DNA of 63,465 bases, filler included, from Sluysia triapertura (taxonomy: Eukaryota): NCBI GenBank assembly GCA_046118255.1. It is 5 parts of 5 records of this genome, joined end to end, with 100 filler letters (N's around TTAATTAATTAA, not from the genome) between each part and the next. Parts side by side here need not be neighbours in the genome. Positions count along the whole stretch, not along the records: positions 10,888 to 23,541 come from JBJNIA010091788.1; positions 23,642 to 35,181 come from JBJNIA010183513.1; 3 more parts are not named here. The stretch is one strand, 5' to 3'. Both the position numbers and the translations under genes were made by a program. Every line of letters starts with the position of its first letter. Position 1 is the first letter of the stretch. Shown one piece after another: positions 9,430 to 61,420 of this stretch. The notes under the pieces are model-generated. The model saw nothing but the letters and a program-made list of their open reading frames with translations, was not told the DNA's origin and searched no databases.

Positions 9430-10740
9430 GTGGTTACGACAATTTGTTTTCTGTTAAAGTTATTAATGATATAGATGATTATACTAAAGTTGATGATGAT
9501 TTATATAACAACTATATGCAATTATAAAGTTAAGTTTAGCCTGATCGACATTAGTAAAGATGTTAATGTTCTAATTGTCATTGCTCAAGATGATCAGAAT
9601 AAGGATAATGATGATGATGATGATGATAAATATAACAATTAGCAAATATGTAATTATAAAGTTATTAATTCTAAAGACGATAAGAATAAAATTTGTGATG
9701 ATCACGTCTAAAACTTTAGAGCATATAATTTTGAAGATCAGTATAACGCACGATTGGCATTAGTAGAGATAACAATTTAAAAAATAACAATCTTGAAGAC
9801 GACAAGGTCGAAGTTATTAATGTCGAAGTCGAGTATTGTGATTCTAACAGTCACGACGATAAAGATAACAATGCTGGATATGAGGCTACGCAAATTAGGA
9901 GGAAGAAATATATTGATTATCAAATCAACAACGAAGAAGAACATGATGTTTTATTTAGCTGTTATGAAGACAAATTGTATAAACCTAAACATTACAAAGT
10001 CGATTTCTTTAATATTTATATAAATAATGTGTTTTCGAACTTTATTATTATAAATTAAGTGTAATTAATTTTCTTAATGATAAAAATAATATTTATTCTG
10101 TTGATAAAAATAAACCTACAATTTGTCAAAGGTCAAACATTATTAAAACATTATTACGTCAAAGCCAAATATAATAACAATTATTGATTTTAATTACTAT
10201 GAATATAATAACATTTATTGATTTTAATGATGACTGATTTTATTATTATTGGATTTTTATTTAATGACATTGGATTTTTAAATAATTTTTATTACTGTGA
10301 GTTTATTAATCTTATTAAATTTTATTATTAATTTAATAATTTTATTTTCTTATTAATCTTATTTTGTTATTAATTTATTAATTTTATTCTTAAAATGTTA
10401 AATTTTGTTAATTCATTTTGTTTTAAATAATTAATGAAAGGTACAACAATGACAATGAGTATTTTTGTAATGACTCTCGAAGTAGAGATAATGAGCATGA
10501 TTATTGCATGTTAAATAGTATAGCTGCTATGTGTCCAGCTCTTACTGATAATAATGGTATCTGCTTACTGCGTGGGTTGTACTGCAGATACACTCATTCT
10601 GTTCAAGATTTGAAGAGCAGCAAAGAAAATAAAGCAACTTTCCACTTACACTTGCAACGAATTACAGAGTTGCTGAATAATATTGCAGTTGTTTCCAGCA
10701 TTTCAGGTGGCAATAATTTATTAGACGACGTCAAGATAAG
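9430..10740 (+). pseudogene. Asn/Asp-rich protein with C-terminal CCCH zinc finger, copy 1 (decayed)
   Basis: D/N-rich codons with stops at 9430-10080, homologous to 60203-60950. ORF 10508 contains CPALTDNNGICLLRGLYCRYTHSVQDL = C-x9-C-x6-C-x3-H, a TIS11-like CCCH pattern. Confidence 0.6.
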
Positions 10741-10787
10741 TAATGTTTACTTCTATTCATTGTGTGTTAACAATTATTATTACTGTT

Positions 10788-17497: not shown

Positions 17498-19104
17498 AAT
17501 TCCCCCTTTATATACAATCAACAAGAAATCAATTTAAACAATATTTTTATTTTGTTTTAATAATAATAATTTTTTAAATATTTATTTATATTTTATGTTT
17601 TAATAATAATAGAAAAATTTTTTAAATATTTTTAATAAAATATTTTAATAAAATTTTTTAATAAAATATTTTTAAAATATATATATATATTTTAATATAA
17701 TAATTGTAAAAAATATAAATATATAATAATTTGATATTATTTATTTAAGATAAAAAACTAAAAATACTAATAAACATACTAAAAATTAAAAATTCTAAAA
17801 ATGCCTTTACAAAGCAAAGAGTTTATAAAAGAGATATAAAAGTTTCATTAGAAGATATAAGAATGGCATTATCTATGTACAAATCTAAGAAATATATGTC
17901 GCATATAACAAATAATATGGAACACATGGTCTTACTTCCAGAAACGCGTAAATTTGAAGCTAACAGCTTCAAAATTATTTGACAGGCTTAGCCATAGCAC
18001 TTATAACTAAATAGATCATGCGAAGAAAAATAACTGGAATATTTTTGTTAATTGCTTTAGATGACATAGGAAAATATTCACAAAAAAGGTTAAATGTAAG
18101 AAAACAGAAACCCCAACTGTATACGAATTTTCTTGCGCACTTAAGTGTTTAGTGGCAAGAGCAGAAACTTCTAGAAGAAAGAAAGAAAATAACTTTAAAA
18201 GATAAATTCAAAAGTGGATTACGCCCTGAAATAAGGATTTATGTAAGTTTAATAGATAATTAATCTTTTAAAGAAATAGTTAAAAAATTAAGAAGTATGG
18301 AAAGATCAGGTATTGAAGAAAACGATAATATAAGTTATATAAGTAATAATATTAATATAAATACTAGTAATTTAAAAGAAGAATCATATAAGAATAAAAG
18401 TTTCGAAGAAATTATTAGCCTTCAGGAAATAATTATACAGGTTATAGAAATAACATAAACAATTTCGGCTCAAGAAGTAAATACAACAAGAGGATTTGAA
18501 AGAAATTATCTAAGCAACGAGAGTTCGAACAAAGACCATTGACCAGATGGCCAAAAGCCAAGATAATAATTTTACAAAAAGAAGTAAAAGCCTTGGTAGA
18601 AACAACAATAATGAAGGAACTAGTAAATCTAAGGTTCAGACAAACATAAAGGAAGAAGTAATTTGTCACAATCGAGCAACTAATATCTAATACTTTTACT
18701 TGAGAATTAAATAAGATACAACCACTGAAACACGGCTACGGTAAGAAAAGTAAGATTCGATAAGGGAAATGATAAGGATAGTAATGATTCTTATAATTAT
18801 AATTAAATTATAATTACTACAATATGTAAGACAAAAGAAGACAAGTTTCGATGAAGATTACGAAGAGAGCGAATAAGGAAAGGTTCTAGGTAGTCTAACA
18901 GAAGAAGAAGTAAGAGTATTACAGGAGTTCCAAAGAATGAAGGTAGACAATGATGATTGGGAGGAAAGAAAAGATAAGTCAAAAAGAAAGAACGAAGAAG
19001 AAAATGAAACGTTTATAAATTATCTGTACGATTATTTTCTAAAATTTTTGAAGAGAAGACAGGAAAAGAAAAATACGAGTTTGAGATTAAAAAAAGGGAT
19101 ATAC

Positions 19105-19263
19105 TGTTGGGGTAAAAAAAAGCCTAAGGTGCCATTTGGTAAAATTGACAATAATAAAATAAAACTGTTAGACGGAGCTAATAGCTTAGTGGTAGAGCAT
19201 TCGAACTGCGCAGCGAAGGTCCCGGGTTCGATCCCCGGTCAGTCCATTTTATGAAGTCTAACA
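19105..19263 (+). mobile_element. 159-bp tRNA-containing element (solo-LTR/TRIM-like), copy 1
   Basis: TGTT...AACA termini; ATAC target-site duplication (19101-19104/19264-19267); same length and layout as 25811-25969. Confidence 0.85.
19175..19246 (+). tRNA. tRNA-like Pol III unit (Ala-like consensus, 8-nt anticodon loop), probably element-borne pseudo-tRNA
   Basis: A box TAGCTTAGTGG, B box GGTTCGATCC, D and T stems pair, loop ACTGCGCA, followed by TTTT. Mismatches in the acceptor and anticodon stems. Confidence 0.7.
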
Positions 19264-20142
19264 ATACTTGAAATAGAAAAATATAGAAAAAGAATAGACG
19301 TATGGGATAGATGTGAAAACAAATAAAGATGTAATATTGGAAAATAACCAGGAAAATGATTCAAAAGGGAACGAGGAAGAAATACCTGAAGAAGAAATAT
19401 CTGAGAAAATGTATTTATTTGAAGAATAAACAAGCTTAAGTGAGGATGAAAAAAAGATGACACTAATGAAATAGACTCTGAAATCTTAAGCGAAATCCAA
19501 TAACAATCTTAGTTAATGAAGAAAGAGAACGAAACACTCCAGAATCAAAGGATAAATAAGGAAGTACAAATGTTTCTTACAGACTTACGAAGAGGTATAG
19601 AAGAAGCAAAGAATATAGATAAGAATATAGACGAGTTACTTATTTGAGAGATGACAAAGTAATTTAGTAATTTTATGTCTAGAAGATAGTCCATATAAGA
19701 TAAAAACTCGAAAATTATTAAAGTAAATTTTGCTAAATAGAAAGAATGGAATATCCTAAGGCTTTAATGGGAATTAATGTAACAATCAATGAATCAATAA
19801 ACGTTTTTATGGAGTTTCCGGAGACTACATTGGTAGAAGAAGTTATCGACGTCATTAAGGTGAATGACGCATCAATAATAAATGTGAAATTTATTACCAG
19901 ACGAATACTTAAATTATTATGGTTGTCCTTTAGGAAAGCACAACTATATATTAAAAGTTTTCATTGAATATGCAATCCAAAATAAACCTATATGTGGAGG
20001 GATTTGTCTTTTTTAAGTTTAAAAAATTATTAAAAACATTAAAATTTTCAATTAATGATGAACAATTTAAACAAATCATCGAAACAATTAACAAAATAGG
20101 CTTAAGACCTTTTAAAAACAATTTTGAAAATAAACCAAGATT

Positions 20143-20609
20143 TTAATGCGATATATTAAGAAACAAGAAAAATTTTATAAATACAAATATAACCGCTAAT
20201 ATAATGTTATAGAAGTTTGGTATTGCCTGATTAACTGACAGACTGCCTACTGTTACCATGAGGAAAACCAAGACTATGTTACCTCCAGTGAGTAGATTTA
20301 CTTTGTAAGCTTCTATTAGTTTGTCATTTAAAATCATGAACTATAGTATGAATTGAACTATAGTATGACTAGCACACAACCGATTAAACTACATGTAAAC
20401 AGTTGTCCAATGATGAATATTTCATCACAAAATTCTTTAAACTCATTAATAGTTGAAATATTTGTTTTAATTTTTGAATACTTAAACCAATTATTCGAAT
20501 AAAAATCATACTTATGTAAAGAAAAATCGTAACGTAAGACATTATTTGTTTGTGCATAAATCACTTCATTTCTACAATATGTACTAAACATCATCCAGCC
20601 TAAATCCAT
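20143..20609 (-). pseudogene. Multi-pass membrane protein-like ORF split by one stop
   Basis: ORFs 20358-20609 and 20143-20337 contain three hydrophobic stretches; no family recognised. Confidence 0.3.
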
Positions 20610-21136
20610 GAGAAATTATCAATGTTATTAAATGTTAATACACATAATTAACCACTTAACAGTCGGATTTTTTTGAGAAAATTGGTAAAAAACTGTCACT
20701 CTTTTATTTTTATGTTGTGTCTTTTATACTTTTTATTTCGCAAATTACAAATCAAAACCCAACAATTGAACAACTTCAGAATCTCGATATATTTTTTGAA
20801 TAATCAAAAATTACAATTTAAAAAATAATAATTATTCTTTATGACAACAACAATATAAAATACTCTCTAAAACAAAATACAAACTCTCTTTATATAAAAA
20901 TTTTAAATTACTCTCTATAACCACGTAAATTACTCTTTAAAAACAAATTAAAAAGCCAGGGGTGACACAACTTAAATCCTTGCTCCCGATATTAATGCAA
21001 AATACACTCAATACAAAATAGATAACTAACCCTAATCCACCTCGAGTCATGCACAAGCTAAACTATTACTTAAAATTTTTATATAAGTTTAGGATTTATT
21101 ATATATATTTTTTATTTTTAGTTAAAACAATTAGCA

Positions 21137-21442
21137 ATGTCTTTTTCCACTTGTGCCATTTGTCTCCGTTTTCTTCGCAAATACTTTGCTAAAACTTCCC
21201 CTTGCTTTCACCGCTTTCATTTCTTTTGTCTCTACCATCTCTTCGAATCCTCTCCATTACCTTTACCAAGTTGTCTCTTATGCAGAGCCACTATTAATAA
21301 GTGCGACATTTATTACAAACGCTGCTTCCGACGATCGTACGAATTCGCAGTCAAATATATAACCGACGACTCGGAAGAAACCGGTATTTATGTATATCAA
21401 CCGGCATCGCCTATAAAGGAAAAAAGCCTTAGTAAGAATTGA
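21137..21442 (+). CDS. RING-H2 (C3H2C3) zinc-finger protein, putative E3 ubiquitin ligase
   Basis: CAIC-x13-C-F-H-RF-H-FF-C-x14-CLLCR: all eight ligands present with canonical spacing, directly after an ATG. Confidence 0.8.
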   Translation: MSFSTCAICLRFLRKYFAKTSPCFHRFHFFCLYHLFESSPLPLPSCLLCRATINKCDIYYKRCFRRSYEFAVKYITDDSEETGIYVYQPASPIKEKSLSKN

Positions 21443-21683
21443 TGGATAAGACCTCCCCCTAACTTCTCGTCAGGTTTATCCAAATCACAAAGACACAACA
21501 GACGAAGGCGTCAATTAAAACATTTTATAAAGAAAAAGAAGCAAATATGTCTAAAGCTCCGAAACCTATTAATCCCTTTTTAAAGAGAAAACATTAGCTC
21601 TTCCTAACTTATTTTATTATGTTATATTATTATATGATTTTAAATATTGACAAAAAATAGCCTACTTATTTAAATTATTTTTC

Positions 21684-22463
21684 TTGTATAATTTTTATTT
21701 TTCCTTCCTTTTATCTTCAATCACATCCAAGCAAAACTACTTGACCAACAAAAAATTTTTACGTATATATCGATCGCTATTGCCACGAAAGTATTACCTC
21801 TGCTTTTTTTCTGCGACTCGGTCTCGACACCCATCACCTATATTTTCATTAAAACCAGAATCCCCATTTGTCTCGCTTGATGGTCTTTCGCAAGTTCCCG
21901 AAACTATAACTTCTCTTTACTTAGTTGTTGCCAGGGGCGTTGTAAAAGTTACCTTAATCGAAAACGGCATACCATTTCTGGCTCGAGTTCATGGTTTCAA
22001 TTCGTTACATATTACTAATTTGAACAAAAAGTGTAACGTGATAATTGAAGCAACAGAATATCCCAATTCAATCGCACTGCTTTTCCCTTTGTCTACATCT
22101 ATCTTCCAATCTTTTCTTCCAAATTTATATAAAAACGACACAATAAACTTGGCACGCTGGCAGAACGGAACATCTTTTACTCATGTTCCCCCAATGACTG
22201 CCTACGACGAAGATCGTCTAGTCTTTGTGGCTTATTCCTACGCCCACGATTTTCTTAATTGCCCGCACTTAACTCAATTGTCTTGTATCCCTTATTCGAA
22301 ACAGTTTCATACTGATATTAACATTAAACCTCGTCTCCGAATAAAGAAGTTTTTGAGAGATATCCAGGAGATCAAGGATTCGGACATCTCCGAGGCTAAA
22401 GACATTGATGATGTCCCCCCCTTCTTACTGGGTCATCTGCATGATAAAATCATGGTGTTTTGA
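21684..22463 (+). CDS. Orphan ORF (259 aa) in LTR-element 3' region
   Basis: Longest ORF of the window, locally GC-elevated, globular-looking; true start uncertain. Confidence 0.55.
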   Translation: MYNFYFSFLLSSITSKQNYLTNKKFLRIYRSLLPRKYYLCFFSATRSRHPSPIFSLKPESPFVSLDGLSQVPETITSLYLVVARGVVKVTLIENGIPFLARVHGFNSLHITNLNKKCNVIIEATEYPNSIALLFPLSTSIFQSFLPNLYKNDTINLARWQNGTSFTHVPPMTAYDEDRLVFVAYSYAHDFLNCPHLTQLSCIPYSKQFHTDINIKPRLRIKKFLRDIQEIKDSDISEAKDIDDVPPFLLGHLHDKIMVF

Positions 22464-23077
22464 ACCCATGTTTTGTCATTAAAAGCCTCAATTTGCCTTT
22501 TGGTTGGCTGAAAGGAGTCATCAACTTAACCAATCATAATCTTCTTTCTTATACAACTGACGATGCCATTTTACGTGGACGGCAAACCTTTAGGTTATTA
22601 TATCACGTACCACCCCGCATGACCTGCTCACGGATGGTTTTTGAGTTGGTTTCACTGTTGGATCTGATCCGTGAGAGGGACTTATCCTTTATCCCAAATT
22701 GCTCTCTTCCTCCCCCTTCACTCTTTTCTACTTCTAATACTACTAATAATGCTTTCATGGCACCATCACCATCATCATTATCAGTACCAACAACATCCTT
22801 AGTACCTGCGTCATCATCAACATCTATATTGCCATCATCATTCACACTTATGTCGACAGCACCAACTACTTCATCGTCATCAAACTCCGCCAATCCTTCC
22901 GAGTCTCGACCAACCAAACAACGTACTACTCGTAATACATCGCCGAGCCCTACGCAAATACGTACGGTGAGAACACGTCCTTTAAACCCTGGAAAAAAAG
23001 GACGCTATCAATCTATGACGAGTCCGGCCTATCCGTCGCCTTGGGATGACGACAGAGATGTTGACTTGGACAACTAA
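22460..23077 (+). CDS. Orphan ORF (205 aa) with Ser/Thr/Pro-rich disordered C-terminus; probable -1 continuation of 21684-22463
   Basis: Overlaps the previous ORF by 4 nt in the -1 frame, has the same composition, and ends ~130 bp before the PPT. Confidence 0.55.
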   Translation: MNPCFVIKSLNLPFGWLKGVINLTNHNLLSYTTDDAILRGRQTFRLLYHVPPRMTCSRMVFELVSLLDLIRERDLSFIPNCSLPPPSLFSTSNTTNNAFMAPSPSSLSVPTTSLVPASSSTSILPSSFTLMSTAPTTSSSSNSANPSESRPTKQRTTRNTSPSPTQIRTVRTRPLNPGKKGRYQSMTSPAYPSPWDDDRDVDLDN

Positions 23078-23187
23078 CTCATAATCATGACAACCACATT
23101 GTCTCTTTATCATGATTATTATTATACTCACTTTTTATACTTTATTTTAGTGATATGTATCGTCTATTTTTATTTTTTATGCGTTTC

Positions 23188-23222
23188 GATTCGAGACGAA
23201 TCTTCCCTGACGGGGAAGTAAA
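23188..23222 (+). promoter_or_regulatory. Gypsy-type 3' hairpin and polypurine tract
   Basis: GATTCG-AGA-CGAATC hairpin, then GACGGGGAAGTAAA immediately followed by TGT; typical TCGxGACGA...GGGG..TGT end of Ty3/gypsy internal regions. Confidence 0.7.
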
Positions 23223-23541
23223 TGTAAATATTTAAATATGTAAATTTTATGTAAATTTAATTTTTAATTTTTAATAATTTCTTAGTTTTGTATTAAATTA
23301 TGCAAATATATAAAAAATTATGCAAAATCAAATAAATGTAAATTAATTATTTAATAATTTTAATTCTAAAATTGAATATTTACATTAAATTATCACCGGA
23401 AATCCTTTTTAATTTTATTGAATTTTAGACTATTAAAATAAAATATTTATATAAAATTGACGAGAATCTGGAATATTTATGTAACGGAAATTTAAATATT
23501 TATTTAAAAATAAATGGCATATAAAAGCATATAAATAGAGC
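23223..23541 (+). mobile_element. 3' LTR (truncated by gap)
   Basis: Begins TGTAAA right after the PPT; AT-rich, with TATAAA/TATAAAT boxes near 23520-23537. Confidence 0.6.
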
Positions 23542-23641
23542 NNNNNNNNNNNNNNNNNNNNNNNNNNNNNNNNNNNNNNNNNNNNTTAATTAATTAANNN
23601 NNNNNNNNNNNNNNNNNNNNNNNNNNNNNNNNNNNNNNNNN
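23542..23641. other. Assembly gap with linker
   Basis: N-TTAATTAATTAA-N. Confidence 0.97.
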
Positions 23642-23710
23642 TGGTGTCAAAGTGGCGGCCCGCGGAGGCAAATCATGCGGCCCGTAAAGCAAAAAGGTTT
23701 GACACCACTG
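23642..23710. mobile_element. Miniature hAT (Buster/Charlie-type) MITE
   Basis: TGGTGTCAAA...TTTGACACCACTG terminal inverted repeats with internal GCGGCCCG motifs; left CAG is lost in the gap. Confidence 0.75.
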
Positions 23711-23749
23711 CCTTAAATTATAGCACTATATAAAAGACAATTTTACATG

Positions 23750-24440
23750 GAAAACGCAATGAAGATGTTTTACAATGAAATGATTTTACTACTAAAATGA
23801 AAGAAGAAATAATCTATATAAAAAGTAATTTTATCTAAATGTAACGCCCATTTAAAATTAACCAATCACATTGAAGGGAACAGATCAATGTAGAAATAAG
23901 TGTCACAGTATAGATCTACTTTACAAATTGAAATTTTTATTTGATTTTGAATCTATTATGTCACTTTAAACATCACTTTAATCTCGTGAAAACAATTTGG
24001 ATACAGAAATGTTGGATGATCAATTCAATGTAATGACATGAACGATTCACTATCAAAAGTACAAATGATATAACCAAATCATTCAAAAACTTCCTGTAGA
24101 ATTGACGAAATAATTTGTGATCATAAAGAAACTTGGATATCAACAGTGGTCTTGGAAATGGGATTCGTTTCATAGATTGTGAAGTTGTTAGTGGAAAACT
24201 TGTTTACTATCAAAATTAAGTTAGAACCAACGGATTATTTATTTTCCTTTAAACTTCAGCGAAAGCTATTTCTTATTCGCTTATCTTTTGCTAATAAATC
24301 TAAACTAATAAATCTCAAGGACAAATGTTTAACAAAGTTGGAATTCAACTGAATTCTCTCGTTATGTGTGGCGTTAAAGATTCTTTTGCCTGGAAATTAT
24401 TCACCAACCGCAAATATTGTTTATAAAGAGATATTTGAGT
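23750..24440 (+). mobile_element. Helitron RepHel PIF1-helicase remnant
   Basis: RNLDINSGLGNG (cf. LRNLD..GLCNGTR), FKLQRKLFLIRLSFA and NKSQGQMFNKVGI (cf. RRQFP.RLAFAMTINKSQGQT...VG); frameshifted. Confidence 0.85.
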
Positions 24441-25019
24441 AAAATTTTAGTTTATTTTAAGTGTATGAAATATTCATAGACACTGTAATGAAAAATTTGT
24501 TGAAATCAATATATTTATTGATAATTAACTGTAGCCTCCAATTTTTGTTTTTAGTGAATGATGAGGAAAAAAGTGTGCGTCAATGTGTTAAATAAAGAAT
24601 TCAATAAATTTTAAATAAATTAGGTATTAAATCCATATATTCAAGTATAATAGACTAACTGATTTATTGAACAATCATTTAAGATTATTTGTATTGTTAT
24701 GTACAAAGAAACGGAAAAGAAATTGCGTAAATATTGGACCAATTTTATTCTTAAAATTGAATTTATGATAAATAGCGCACTATTAGTGAAAAGCTAGATG
24801 AAATATTTTATAGAATATACTAAAACTATGGAATACAAGTATAACACAAATATAACACTAATATGAATAAAAAAAGAAAACACAAATAAAAAAGGAAAAT
24901 CGTAATTCAGATTCAGCAGAACTTATACCTAAAATTCATGATTGGCATAAAAGTAGTAAATTAAGAACATTTCTTTAAAAATTAATTAATTAGAGCAAGA
25001 TTGCGAAAAGGCCTAATTC

Positions 25020-25560
25020 AGCTGAGCAAACCATTTCGAACCATATTCGAGATGGATGCGACATGAGATACATGAGAAACAGTTAAATGATCGCGTCATC
25101 ATATGCATATCTCTGCTTGCTCGAACCCTTTTTGGGCTGAGAAAAAAAGCGTATCGTGAACCTGGACTACATGTCCCTCAAACTCTAAACAGAATGAAAA
25201 GCTCAATCCGGGAGGAACTGTCAGCAATTAGATTATTTAACCAAATCATACTACACTATGATAATGCTAGGTGACATAATGCTTTTGAGACAAAAAATCC
25301 AGCGTACTCCACAGATCTAGCAACGTCCCATTATCACTAGTTCTTGCAAAATATTTTGAAGAAAACAAATTGAAAAATAAACCAGAGTTTTTCACCTCTA
25401 AGGTTATGACCTTTTTCAAAGATGGTATTTACCAATTGCCATCACGCTCACAAGAGGTCATAATTAATAATGGAAATTATTTTATACAATAAATATTATT
25501 AAAAATATGAAAATTTATTGTTTTGTTTTATTCTAAAAACGACGAAACGTTGTTTCAGTT
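25020..25560 (+). mobile_element. Mariner transposase remnant with internal deletions
   Basis: WMRHEI (WVPHEL), ILHYDNAR*H (HDNARPH), PAYSTDLATSHYH (YSPDLAPSDYHLF), C-terminal DGIYQLPSR...NNGNYF. Confidence 0.9.
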
Positions 25561-25810
25561 CTAGTTCTACAATGATCACAAACAAAATATGAATAGTAAA
25601 ATAAAAATACGAACTGACTAAGTATTTACTTAGAACAAATAATCAGAAAACAAATTAAGAAAAAGTGACAATATGCAGAGAAATATTGACTGTAATAAAT
25701 CAAAAAATATATGTAAAATCAACAAAGAAATGTTTTTAATGGACAGCATATCAACAAGAATTTCGAGCAACAAATATCTTCCTGAAAATGCAAACTGTAA
25801 CTTAAAATAA

Positions 25811-25968
25811 TGTTGGGGTAAAAGGCCTAAAAAGTGCCAAGTAGTATAATTGAATATATGAAAAATGAAATTGTTAGACGGGGCTGATAGCTCAGTAGTA
25901 GAGCATTCGAACTGCGCATCGAAGGCCCCGGATTCGATCCCCGGTGGGTCCATTTTACGAAGTCGAAC

Positions 25969-25969
<1 letters not shown>
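25811..25969 (+). mobile_element. 159-bp tRNA-containing element, copy 2
   Basis: TGTT...AACA termini; ATAA flanks on both sides (25807-25810/25970-25973). Confidence 0.85.
25881..25952 (+). tRNA. tRNA-like Pol III unit (Ala-like, 8-nt anticodon loop)
   Basis: GGGCTGA-TA-GCTC-AGTAGTA-GAGC-A-TTCGA-ACTGCGCA-TCGAA-GGCC-CCGGA-TTCGATC-CCCGG-TGGGTCC-A followed by TTTT; perfect 5-bp anticodon stem. Confidence 0.7.

Positions 25970-26013
<44 letters not shown>
25970..26013. repeat. (ATA)n microsatellite
   Basis: Trinucleotide run immediately after the 159-bp element. Confidence 0.9.
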
Positions 26014-33809: not shown

Positions 33810-34322
33810 CGATTCCGTTTACATTATTATATATTCAAACAAAATTTTATTCGAAGCTAAATAATTATTGAGACAATTTGAAATATATAAAATGAAATAT
33901 GACATTTCCAAATACGGAAAAATGTCATTTGCACAATTAAAAATACTTTAAAATGTGACAAAATCTGAAAATATAGAAAATAAATTTAAATGTAAATGAT
34001 ATTGCTAAGTACTTTACGGTATTTACTTGTATTTTTGCTTTTGTAAAATTGAATTCATTGTACTCCAATTAAATAACGATAACAATAAACAGATAAACTA
34101 AATTAATAAATTATTTAATTAAAAAATTTCCATTTCAAAGTGCTAACATTAATGATAAACCTACAAATAAAATAGAATATATAGTTATATATTTTTGTTA
34201 ACTTTAAGAAAATAATTAAAATACTTAAATAACAAACTATGAAAATTTATTTTTATTTTATTAATAATATTCATAAATGTGTTACTTACTAACTCTAGTA
34301 GATGATATTATGGATTTTATAG

Positions 34323-34599
34323 GCGCTGCAAATTTTATCAGTCAAACAGCGGCAGCAAGTGGGGGTAGATTTTCACCAAGTTTACTGAATCCTGCTGCAG
34401 CAGCAGCTGCCGCGGTTCAAAATCCAGCTGGCAATGGTGCACCCCATTTTTATTCTTTCCCAGATGTAACTGGTGGAGTTGGAACTGGAAATCCAATGTG
34501 TACTTTACCAAATGGTCAGAATTTTTCATTCAATTCATATTCGGCAGTAGCTGGAGGATCATCATTTAGAAATTCAGGGCTTGTTTCAGATCCAACTAG
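34323..34599 (+). CDS. Host gene exon 3 (AANFISQTAAASGG...GLVSDPT); Ala/Gly/Tyr-rich transcription-factor-like N-terminal region
   Basis: TTTTATAG acceptor in phase 1 continues exon 2; open GC-elevated frame with poly-Ala. The donor AG|GTTCGA is weak, so the end is tentative. Downstream exons not identified. Confidence 0.75.
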
Positions 34600-34994
34600 G
34601 TTCGATTTTGATTATTGTTGTAATCGTATTTCCTACATTATAGTACAGTTCAATATTATCTCTCTTATATCCAACAAATTCAATAAAATAAAATATGTTA
34701 TAAGCATTTTATTAATACGACTATTATCTGCTAAATAAAACAAGAAAATGGTCTAAGGTTTTGAGGTTAACGTTTCAAGAATAATCTCAAGTTCCTTTAA
34801 GAGTCTTTGAACCTTCAAGGTATTGTTCAGTGCCAAAAATGGCCATAGATATTTTCATCTTCAATAATATTATGTCAACTCTTCATGTATTTATCCAATT
34901 CCATGTTTTCTTTACTCACATATCTTAAGCTTTGATAGGCTCATTTGTGCCAATTAAATTAGCTCGATTGTTATTTATAATCAATTGAGTTATA

Positions 34995-60202: not shown

Positions 60203-61420
60203 ATGGGTAACTCTATGACTTCATTTATTTTTGACTATGATTGTTCTGAAAATGATAAAGATTATGATAACGAACTCAATAATGCTAAAGATGATCAGAA
60301 TAAAGTTAATGCTATTAATTATGAAAACTTTCAAGTTTATAATGATGAAGATAAGTATAACATGACTAACGATAGTAATGATGATAATTTTCAAACTATT
60401 AGTGCTAAAGATGATCAGAATAAAGTTAATTATGAAAACTTCCAAGTATATAATGATGAAAACAAGTATAATGTGATTAACAATAGTAGAGATGATAAAT
60501 TCCAAGTTAATAATGCCAAACACGATTAGAATAAAATTAATGATGTTAATTATGAAAACTTCCAAGCATATGATTATGAAGATCAGCATAAGGCGATTAA
60601 CAATACTAGAGTCGATGATTTCCAAACTAATAATCCCGAAGATGACAGTGACGAATTCAACAATGTTGAAGACGAAAATTATGAAGCTACTAATGACAAA
60701 CCTAATAACGACAAAGATAACAGTGTTGGAGATGATTTTACGCAAGCTAAGAAGAAAAAAGGTGTTGATGTTAACAACAATGAGAACATGCTTATCCATT
60801 TTACTACTACAAAGACAACATCCATAAACTTAAACGGTACAAAGTTGATGTTTTTAATTTTTATAAAAATAATACGTCTTTACGAATTTTATGATTATAA
60901 ATTTAACGTATTCAATTTTATTAATGATAATAATAATAATATTTATAAATGTAATGAAGATAAATCTAAGGTTTATGGAGTGAACAACAATAATAATGAT
61001 AATCTCTATTCACTTAATGATTATAAATGTAATGACTTAATGATAACGAACAAAAATAATATTATACGTTCAATAATCATAAGATTGCTAGTATAACTGC
61101 ACTGTGTCCAGCTTTTACCGACAACAATGGGATTTTGTTAATGCATGGAATACTCTGTCGCTACGCTCATTCTGTTCATGAATTGATGATCAGCAAAGAA
61201 GATGAAGCGGCTTGTGATAGCCATTTACAAATAATTACAGAATTACTAAAGAGTATTGTAGTTATCTCTAATACTTCGTCTGACAATATTCTAATATTCT
61301 AAAAATTAAGGTAAATAATTTTTACTTTTATATCCTTTGTGTTATCAATTATTATTATTATTTTTTATTAGAAGGTGAAACAACAAGAAGAAGAATCATA
61401 CGTAGGAGCGAAGTATCAAA
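60203..61420 (+). pseudogene. Asn/Asp-rich repeat protein with CCCH zinc finger, copy 2
   Basis: Frame 60203-61096 is broken by one TAG (60527, CAG in the sister repeats) and has three ~117-bp internal repeats. After a frameshift it reads ITALCPAFTDNNGILLMHGILCRYAHSVHEL. GT-AG intron at 61311-61371. Confidence 0.65.

Follow-up and report, generated by a model that had tools for sequence, protein, structure and literature searches.

What kind of mobile element carries a tRNA-like gene within its body, begins with TG, ends with CA and is flanked by a repeat of four bases? The question is raised by a 63,465-nucleotide stretch of DNA from the eukaryote Sluysia triapertura (assembly GCA_046118255.1; the whole stretch is called the window below), an AT-rich eukaryotic scaffold sequence (A 0.38, T 0.37; ~25% GC) with assembly gaps, in which a 159-bp element occurs twice. 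We hold with good confidence that both copies belong to a high-copy family with fixed ends and 4-bp target-site duplications (TSDs), and that they are likely solo long terminal repeats (LTRs) of a Helenus-type TRIM (terminal-repeat retrotransposon in miniature). The features on which this reading draws are the following (RNA polymerase III is abbreviated as Pol III):

19101-19104, plus strand: left TSD of copy 1, ATAC
19105-19263, plus strand: 159-bp element, copy 1, likely a solo LTR, sitting inside a decayed multi-copy repeat
19105-19174, plus strand: 70-bp AT-rich leader of copy 1, putative U3 (unique 3' region)
19166-19173, plus strand: inner TGTTAGAC of copy 1, exact inverse of the terminal eight bases at 19256-19263
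19175-19246, plus strand: tRNA-like cloverleaf of copy 1, with A box at 19182-19192, B box at 19225-19235 and an 8-nt anticodon loop
19206-19213, plus strand: self-complementary CTGCGCAG at the anticodon loop of copy 1, candidate kissing loop
19247-19263, plus strand: TTTT, a likely Pol III terminator, and a 13-nt tail ending in AACA, putative U5 (unique 5' region)
19264-19267, plus strand: right TSD of copy 1, ATAC
25807-25810, plus strand: left TSD of copy 2, ATAA
25811-25969, plus strand: copy 2 of the 159-bp element
25881-25952, plus strand: tRNA-like cloverleaf of copy 2, with the palindrome TGCGCA at 25913-25918
25970-25973, plus strand: right TSD of copy 2, ATAA, doubling as the start of an (ATA)n microsatellite

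Ends, target-site duplications and the wider family

The preliminary description of this locus spoke of two diverged copies of equal length with TGTT...AACA ends and 4-bp flanks (ATAC and ATAA), and this holds to the base: both copies are 159 bp long and 82% identical (gapped alignment, E 3e-40), and their similarity stops at both element ends, the flanks being unrelated beyond the TSDs. When TSD lengths of 2-12 were compared, 4 bp was the sole match at each copy, and a 4-mer match spanning 159 bp occurs at 620 of 61,959 window positions (1.0%). The outer ends match as inverted sequence perfectly over 4 bp, and long terminal inverted repeats (TIRs) are absent. A profile built from both copies (nhmmer) found no third copy in the window. 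Since each copy has its own TSD and no primer-binding site (PBS) follows, the copies do not form the two termini of a common element. A single 6.9-kb element with the copies as its LTRs was indeed considered and rejected: the copies have diverged by 18%, the assembly gap at 23542-23641 falls between them, and there is neither a PBS after copy 1 nor a clear polypurine tract (PPT) before copy 2.

The wider family was followed in the contigs of run X1, one public run that contains the locus, of which 11,200 out of 6,252,256 aligned to 18700-19700 at 80% likeness. Summed depth is 976 in the bin 19074-19107, lies between 166,000 and 2,014,000 across the element and is 20 at 19278, with 14-485 in the flanking bins and 12-17 for the contigs of the locus itself; the element edges are sharp, and the resulting ratios of 10^4-10^5 are, by the tool's own warning, no copy number. 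Loose contig ends gather within three bases of the 3' end (679 in all, with 392 at 19263, 145 at 19264 and 142 at 19266), and agreement among the flanks past 19263 is only 0.43, the flanking sequences being unrelated. The 3' end is therefore fixed and no shared tail follows it. Ends one base further out match chance (145 against 150 expected), and those three bases out exceed it 4.8-fold (142 against 30 expected). Flanks starting with ATA are thus the enriched ones, with T as the commonest following letter, which points to ATAT-like targets, and aligner end effects could contribute to this excess. In the portion of PMC4344482 available to us, several Gypsy elements of Drosophila (17.6, 297, Quasimodo and rover) are tabulated with 4-bp TSDs and ATAT targets.

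Several further contigs bear on the history of the family. Divergent subfamilies are indicated by 476 contigs that share the 3' half and diverge 5' of 19217. In two contigs a joint from 19263 to 19217 places two copies in tandem with unread sequence between them, which could represent a paired element. A later insertion of copy 1 fits four contigs that stem from other copies of the surrounding repeat and span the interval with no piece aligned to the element (the intervening letters are not known). This surrounding repeat (17750-20150) is itself a decayed, multi-copy and formerly coding-looking sequence with paralogous contigs in run X1 and no Pfam family. No element copy was found by pattern scan in metagenome contigs, viral contigs and prokaryote genomes, and the open antisense frame of both copies, used as a protein query, gave four candidates, none of which scored.

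The tRNA-like part and the inner repeat

The layout proposed earlier, in which a leader of 70 bp precedes a cloverleaf of 72 nt, TTTT and a short tail, was found as described, with the cloverleaf at element positions 71-142 and a tail of 13 nt. Between the copies, the first 61 bp of the leader are 72% identical and its final 9 bp identical, followed by 63/72 matching positions in the cloverleaf and 15/17 in TTTT plus tail. An Rfam scan of the whole window gave two matches in all, both to tRNA (RF00005) and one per copy, with 38.4 bits at 19175-19246 and 37.4 bits at 25881-25952 (gathering score 29). The A and B boxes are intact in copy 1, where the A-box (TRGCY..YGG) and B-box (GGTTC) motifs of Kojima are both found, and each box carries one substitution in copy 2. 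The acceptor stem forms 5/7 pairs in copy 1 and 6/7 in copy 2; at three imperfect positions of copy 1 the commoner letter among the aligned contigs restores a standard pair, as judged site by site and not on single molecules. Which tRNA was the parent is not fixed by the comparison, Lys and Cys genes being alike with 49-54 of 72 matches (17 loci with a shared D-arm, 16 of them called by ARAGORN).

Functional tRNAs have an anticodon loop of 7 nt, with a uridine at position 33 and a purine at position 37. The loop of the present element measures 8 nt instead, and ARAGORN reported no gene at its default setting and 'tRNA-???', with no assignable anticodon, at a relaxed threshold. Taken together with the retained boxes, this indicates that the promoter boxes and three stems have been kept and that decoding has been lost, the same pattern as Kojima reports for Helenus (PMC10886601). 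What had been called a complete tRNA-like gene is thus complete as regards the cloverleaf fold, but not as a gene, given the 8-nt loop, the empty ARAGORN result and the damaged boxes of copy 2. The tRNA-like part likely serves as promoter and RNA scaffold rather than as a decoding tRNA.

The short repeat in front of the cloverleaf had been described as the perfect inverse of the terminal bases in copy 1, and over 8 bases it is exact. In copy 2, TGTTAGAC lies at 25872-25879 with one mismatch to the inverse of that copy's own end; against shuffled sequences, the agreement between inner repeat and terminus has a P of about 0.003, a post hoc value. Neither a TSD nor a depth step marks the boundary of the inner repeat. 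Possibly an older 98-bp LTR began here before the leader was gained; alternatively, the inner repeat may form a stem with the tail when both are present in read-through RNA. One fold does pair it with the tail, yet not better than shuffles (z -1.06). In single-strand folding the element does not outperform shuffled sequences (z 0.45 to -1.06) and its minimum-energy structure is not the cloverleaf, so that folding energy supports neither the cloverleaf nor a stem between inner repeat and terminus.

Solo LTR or another kind of element

Of the readings put forward for this locus, a solo LTR with a tRNA-derived Pol III promoter, as first suggested, fits best in view of the fixed 3' end, the missing common tail, the 4-bp TSDs and the lack of long TIRs. 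Several observations weigh against it. No paired LTR-PBS-PPT-LTR copy was seen, both copies in the window being solo; no PBS-like TGG follows either copy, and the loose-end consensus at 19263 carries no PBS signal; neither an autonomous Gypsy with these termini nor a partner element was found; and no retroelement Pfam family appeared in 18 read-through frames of 17749-25810, the frames over copy 1 giving no Pfam family at all. The right TSD of copy 2 overlaps the (ATA)n microsatellite, so that this duplication is weak taken alone. For the 5' boundary the evidence is the step in depth together with both copies of the window and a further contig aligning from exactly 19105, since no 5' loose ends occur among the matches listed (6 of 301). 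Depth is 5-12 times lower across the leader than across the T-arm, which fits divergent subfamilies and could also reflect 5' truncation. Finally, run X1 is possibly the source sample, and would then not be independent.

The combination of TG...CA ends with a 4-bp TSD, which the preliminary description took as the signature of Gypsy integrases, does fit Gypsy but is not unique to it. According to the part of PMC2836005 at hand, TGTNR termini together with 4-bp TSDs also occur in Ginger DNA transposons, of which Ginger2 has a preference for AT-rich targets. The 159-bp unit might therefore move singly, as a non-autonomous, Ginger2-like DNA element that relies on a Gypsy-integrase-like transposase and carries the tRNA-like part as passenger; its former inverted repeats would then survive as the inner TGTTAGAC and the terminal GTCTAACA. 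We regard this as unlikely. Both ends fit TGTNR, a perfect 8-bp inverted repeat bounds the inner 98-bp unit, and the paired form expected of an LTR element was not seen; but the TIRs given in the same part of that source are about 40-270 bp long in Ginger1 and about 50-180 bp in Ginger2, whereas the outer ends here match over 4 bp, and the targets CCGG/CCGT (Ginger1) and RTATAY (Ginger2) differ from the ATAC, ATAA and ATAT of the present family. Moreover, the TSDs lie at the outer end and not at the inner repeat, and depth does not rise at 19166 (418,000 at 19150; 428,000 at 19187), so that the 98-bp unit is seemingly no separate abundant element. An ordinary tRNA-derived short interspersed nuclear element (SINE), copied by a long interspersed nuclear element (LINE) and provided with a gained 5' extension and an (ATA)n tail, is less probable still, even though (ATA)n directly follows copy 2, depth declines in the 5' direction and the number of copies resembles that of a SINE. 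The tRNA-like part begins 70 bp inside the element behind a leader common to both copies, contigs diverge at the first base past AACA with T rather than A as the commonest base after ATA, and both TSDs are exactly 4 bp, compared with a LINE-type range of 4-19 bp in the part of the PMC4344482 table available to us; the internal tRNA, the fixed 3' end and the absence of a shared tail are what make a SINE so improbable.

We give hardly any credence to the idea that segmental duplication has spread a functional tRNA or small-RNA gene of the host. At 19176, 19180 and 19187 the commoner letters close the acceptor- and D-stem mispairs of copy 1, so that the fold looks conserved across the family, and G3-U70 and A73, which are identity marks of alanine tRNA, are retained. 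The 8-nt loop without assignable anticodon speaks against such a gene, as do the contigs that join across the interval with no piece aligned to the element, and a segmental duplication is contradicted by the TSDs and by flanks that are unrelated beyond them.

If the copies are solo LTRs, the full element would consist of LTR, PBS, internal region, PPT and LTR, in which U3, R and U5 would correspond to leader, cloverleaf and tail. Transcription by Pol III would begin in the 5' LTR, just upstream of the cloverleaf, would sometimes pass the leaky TTTT and would end at the TTTT within the 3' LTR. Gag, reverse transcriptase and integrase would come in trans from a Gypsy helper, with 4-bp and often ATAT-like duplications as the outcome, and recombination between LTRs would leave a single LTR between one pair of TSDs, as at both copies. 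This cycle is modelled on Helenus and Cassandra.

The remainder of the window contains other repeats and open reading frames (ORFs). A Pfam scan of 144 proteins (143 window ORFs and the database protein P0001) returned zinc-finger matches alone, all below the cut-off. A RING-finger ORF lies at 21122-21442 (Pfam E 1e-5, below cut-off); it is followed by two more ORFs (270 and 209 aa), by a purine tract at 23212 and by a gap-cut, AT-rich stretch starting with TGT, and the whole of 21122-23541 has the look of an unclassified LTR-type element's 3' end. Among 1.84 billion proteins the 270-aa ORF has a single distant relative (P0001, 27%, E 2e-4), and it shows a weak atlas likeness to DEDDh exonucleases (0.79). 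Beyond the gap, a short gap-cut element with inverted ends TGGTGTCAAA...TTTGACACCA (23642-23711) is presumably like a hAT miniature inverted-repeat transposable element, and the motifs HYDNAR and PAYSTDLA in read-through frames of 24900-25500, which have no Pfam match, we take to be the remnant of a mariner-like transposase. Elsewhere, an ORF at 8144-8563 matches RRN3 weakly (E 1e-4, below cut-off) and gave an empty homologue search; a duplicated block (9464-10782 and 60280-61357, 69-72% identical) encodes Asn/Asp-rich repeats and one UNK-like CCCH zinc finger per copy; and a GC-richer, exon-like ORF with a poly-Ala tract at 34310-34618 shows atlas likeness to transcription-factor fragments (0.85), with no sequence homologue found.

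The palindromic loop and comparison with known systems

The anticodon loop is self-complementary in both copies (CTGCGCAG in copy 1, TGCGCA in copy 2; self-duplex energies -14.5 and -9.9 kcal/mol), and TGCGCA is present in all 6 of 6 divergent snippets of run X1 that span the loop. As a control, a palindrome of at least 6 nt was found at the loop of 2 of the 17 tRNA loci, both Cys, and random 10-mers contain one of at least 4 nt in 38% and of at least 6 nt in 8% of cases. A tally by eye of Helenus LTRs (supplement parts 1, 4, 5 and 7; part 9 is mixed and was left out of the count) gave loop palindromes of at least 4 nt in 85/115 (44 expected) and of at least 6 nt in 31/115 (9 expected), the former divided into 50/56 in parts 1 and 4 (fungi) and 35/59 in parts 5 and 7 (mostly animals). 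The published palindromes have the cores CTAG, CATG, CCGG, GTAC or GATC, and related families swap palindromic cores (CTAG in Helenus-2C_CGi, CCGG in Helenus-1_SaGl and TCCGGA in Helenus-1_CroRib). Several coelacanth, fish, bivalve and nemertean LTRs in Data S1 parts 5 and 7 also share a CTAG hairpin just upstream of the tRNA-like part, of which we noticed no mention in the text of PMC10886601.

We tentatively suggest, as a doubtful possibility, that in elements of the Helenus type the retained tRNA scaffold has two tasks: the boxes drive transcription, and the self-complementary loop, having taken the place of the anticodon, pairs two genomic RNAs, whose dimer would be packaged by the Gag of the helper. 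The dimerisation site DS/PAL6 of Ty3, a CUGCAG palindrome atop a hairpin in gag, is experimentally supported according to the available part of PMC11381356, and is similar in that a GC-rich palindrome, here CUGCGCAG/UGCGCA atop the anticodon arm, caps a hairpin; in the present element the role is a candidate one. Such a kissing loop would also account for CTAG or CATG being the source of nearly all falsely predicted tRNA types in rust fungi; in Table 2 of Kojima, 7/8 of the inflated anticodon calls can be derived from one of these two cores (PMC10886601). Several points argue against it. The tally was made by eye; the Helenus families are related, so that the palindrome counts overstate the evidence; CTAG is native to loops with AGN anticodons and CTGCAG to tRNA-Cys, so that descent could explain much; GC slippage by itself preserves a palindrome; and ctenophore, sturgeon and brachiopod Helenus families have no loop palindrome. 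The words palindrome, dimer and kissing do not occur in the main text of Kojima (PMC10886601), and a literature search by title or abstract opening found nothing on loop dimerisation in such elements. How a TRIM keeps its dependence on a helper without sharing LTR sequence with it is, according to Kojima, not known (PMC10886601); a dimerisation loop, if real, would answer this in part and give the cloverleaf a role beyond that of a promoter.

Among known systems, Ginger1 and Ginger2/Tdd share TGTNR termini and 4-bp TSDs with the present element, which has neither the long TIRs nor the CCGG/CCGT or RTATAY targets of Ginger1 and Ginger2 (PMC2836005, available part). Cassandra and Ajax are TRIMs with LTR promoters derived from 5S rRNA; the TSD of Ajax is 5 bp, and Cassandra transcripts span from the 5' LTR to the 3' LTR (the latter as summarised in PMC10886601). 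They resemble the present element in bearing the Pol III promoter of a small RNA within the LTR, and differ in its derivation from 5S rather than tRNA.

The closest counterpart is Helenus (TRIMp3), described by Kojima in 2024 and also mentioned in the available part of PMC12859917. These are noncoding TRIMs with a tRNA-like promoter, predicted to be transcribed by Pol III and mobilised by Gypsy in animals or Copia in fungi, acting in trans, with LTRs of 104-323 bp and TSDs of 4 bp in animals and 5 bp in fungi and plants; solo LTRs are frequent, some families being known solely as such (PMC10886601). The idea that the layout might be undescribed is thereby set aside, and the element probably adds a new family to a kind already known. 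No LTR of Data S1 was matched by motif, and supplement parts 2, 3, 6 and 8 (of 11) could hold a closer family; Helenus membership is likely, with the paired form not seen. As a very abundant Helenus-like family of an AT-rich eukaryote it would add a host record, and it would inflate tRNA gene predictions in the genome of its host. It differs from Helenus in its AT-rich leader, inside which the 3' end recurs in inverted form. Most Helenus LTRs examined run from TGT through leader, tRNA-like part, T run and tail to ACA (PMC10886601), and the present element has the same TGT...ACA outline, leader, A- and B-box tRNA-like part, T run and short tail. It likewise has a non-functional anticodon, 4-bp TSDs in 2/2 copies as in animal families and the solo state, and its 159 bp lie within the published range and equal the LTR length of the animal families Helenus-1_PeMa and Helenus-3_MiYe, with Helenus-2_TeGr also close.

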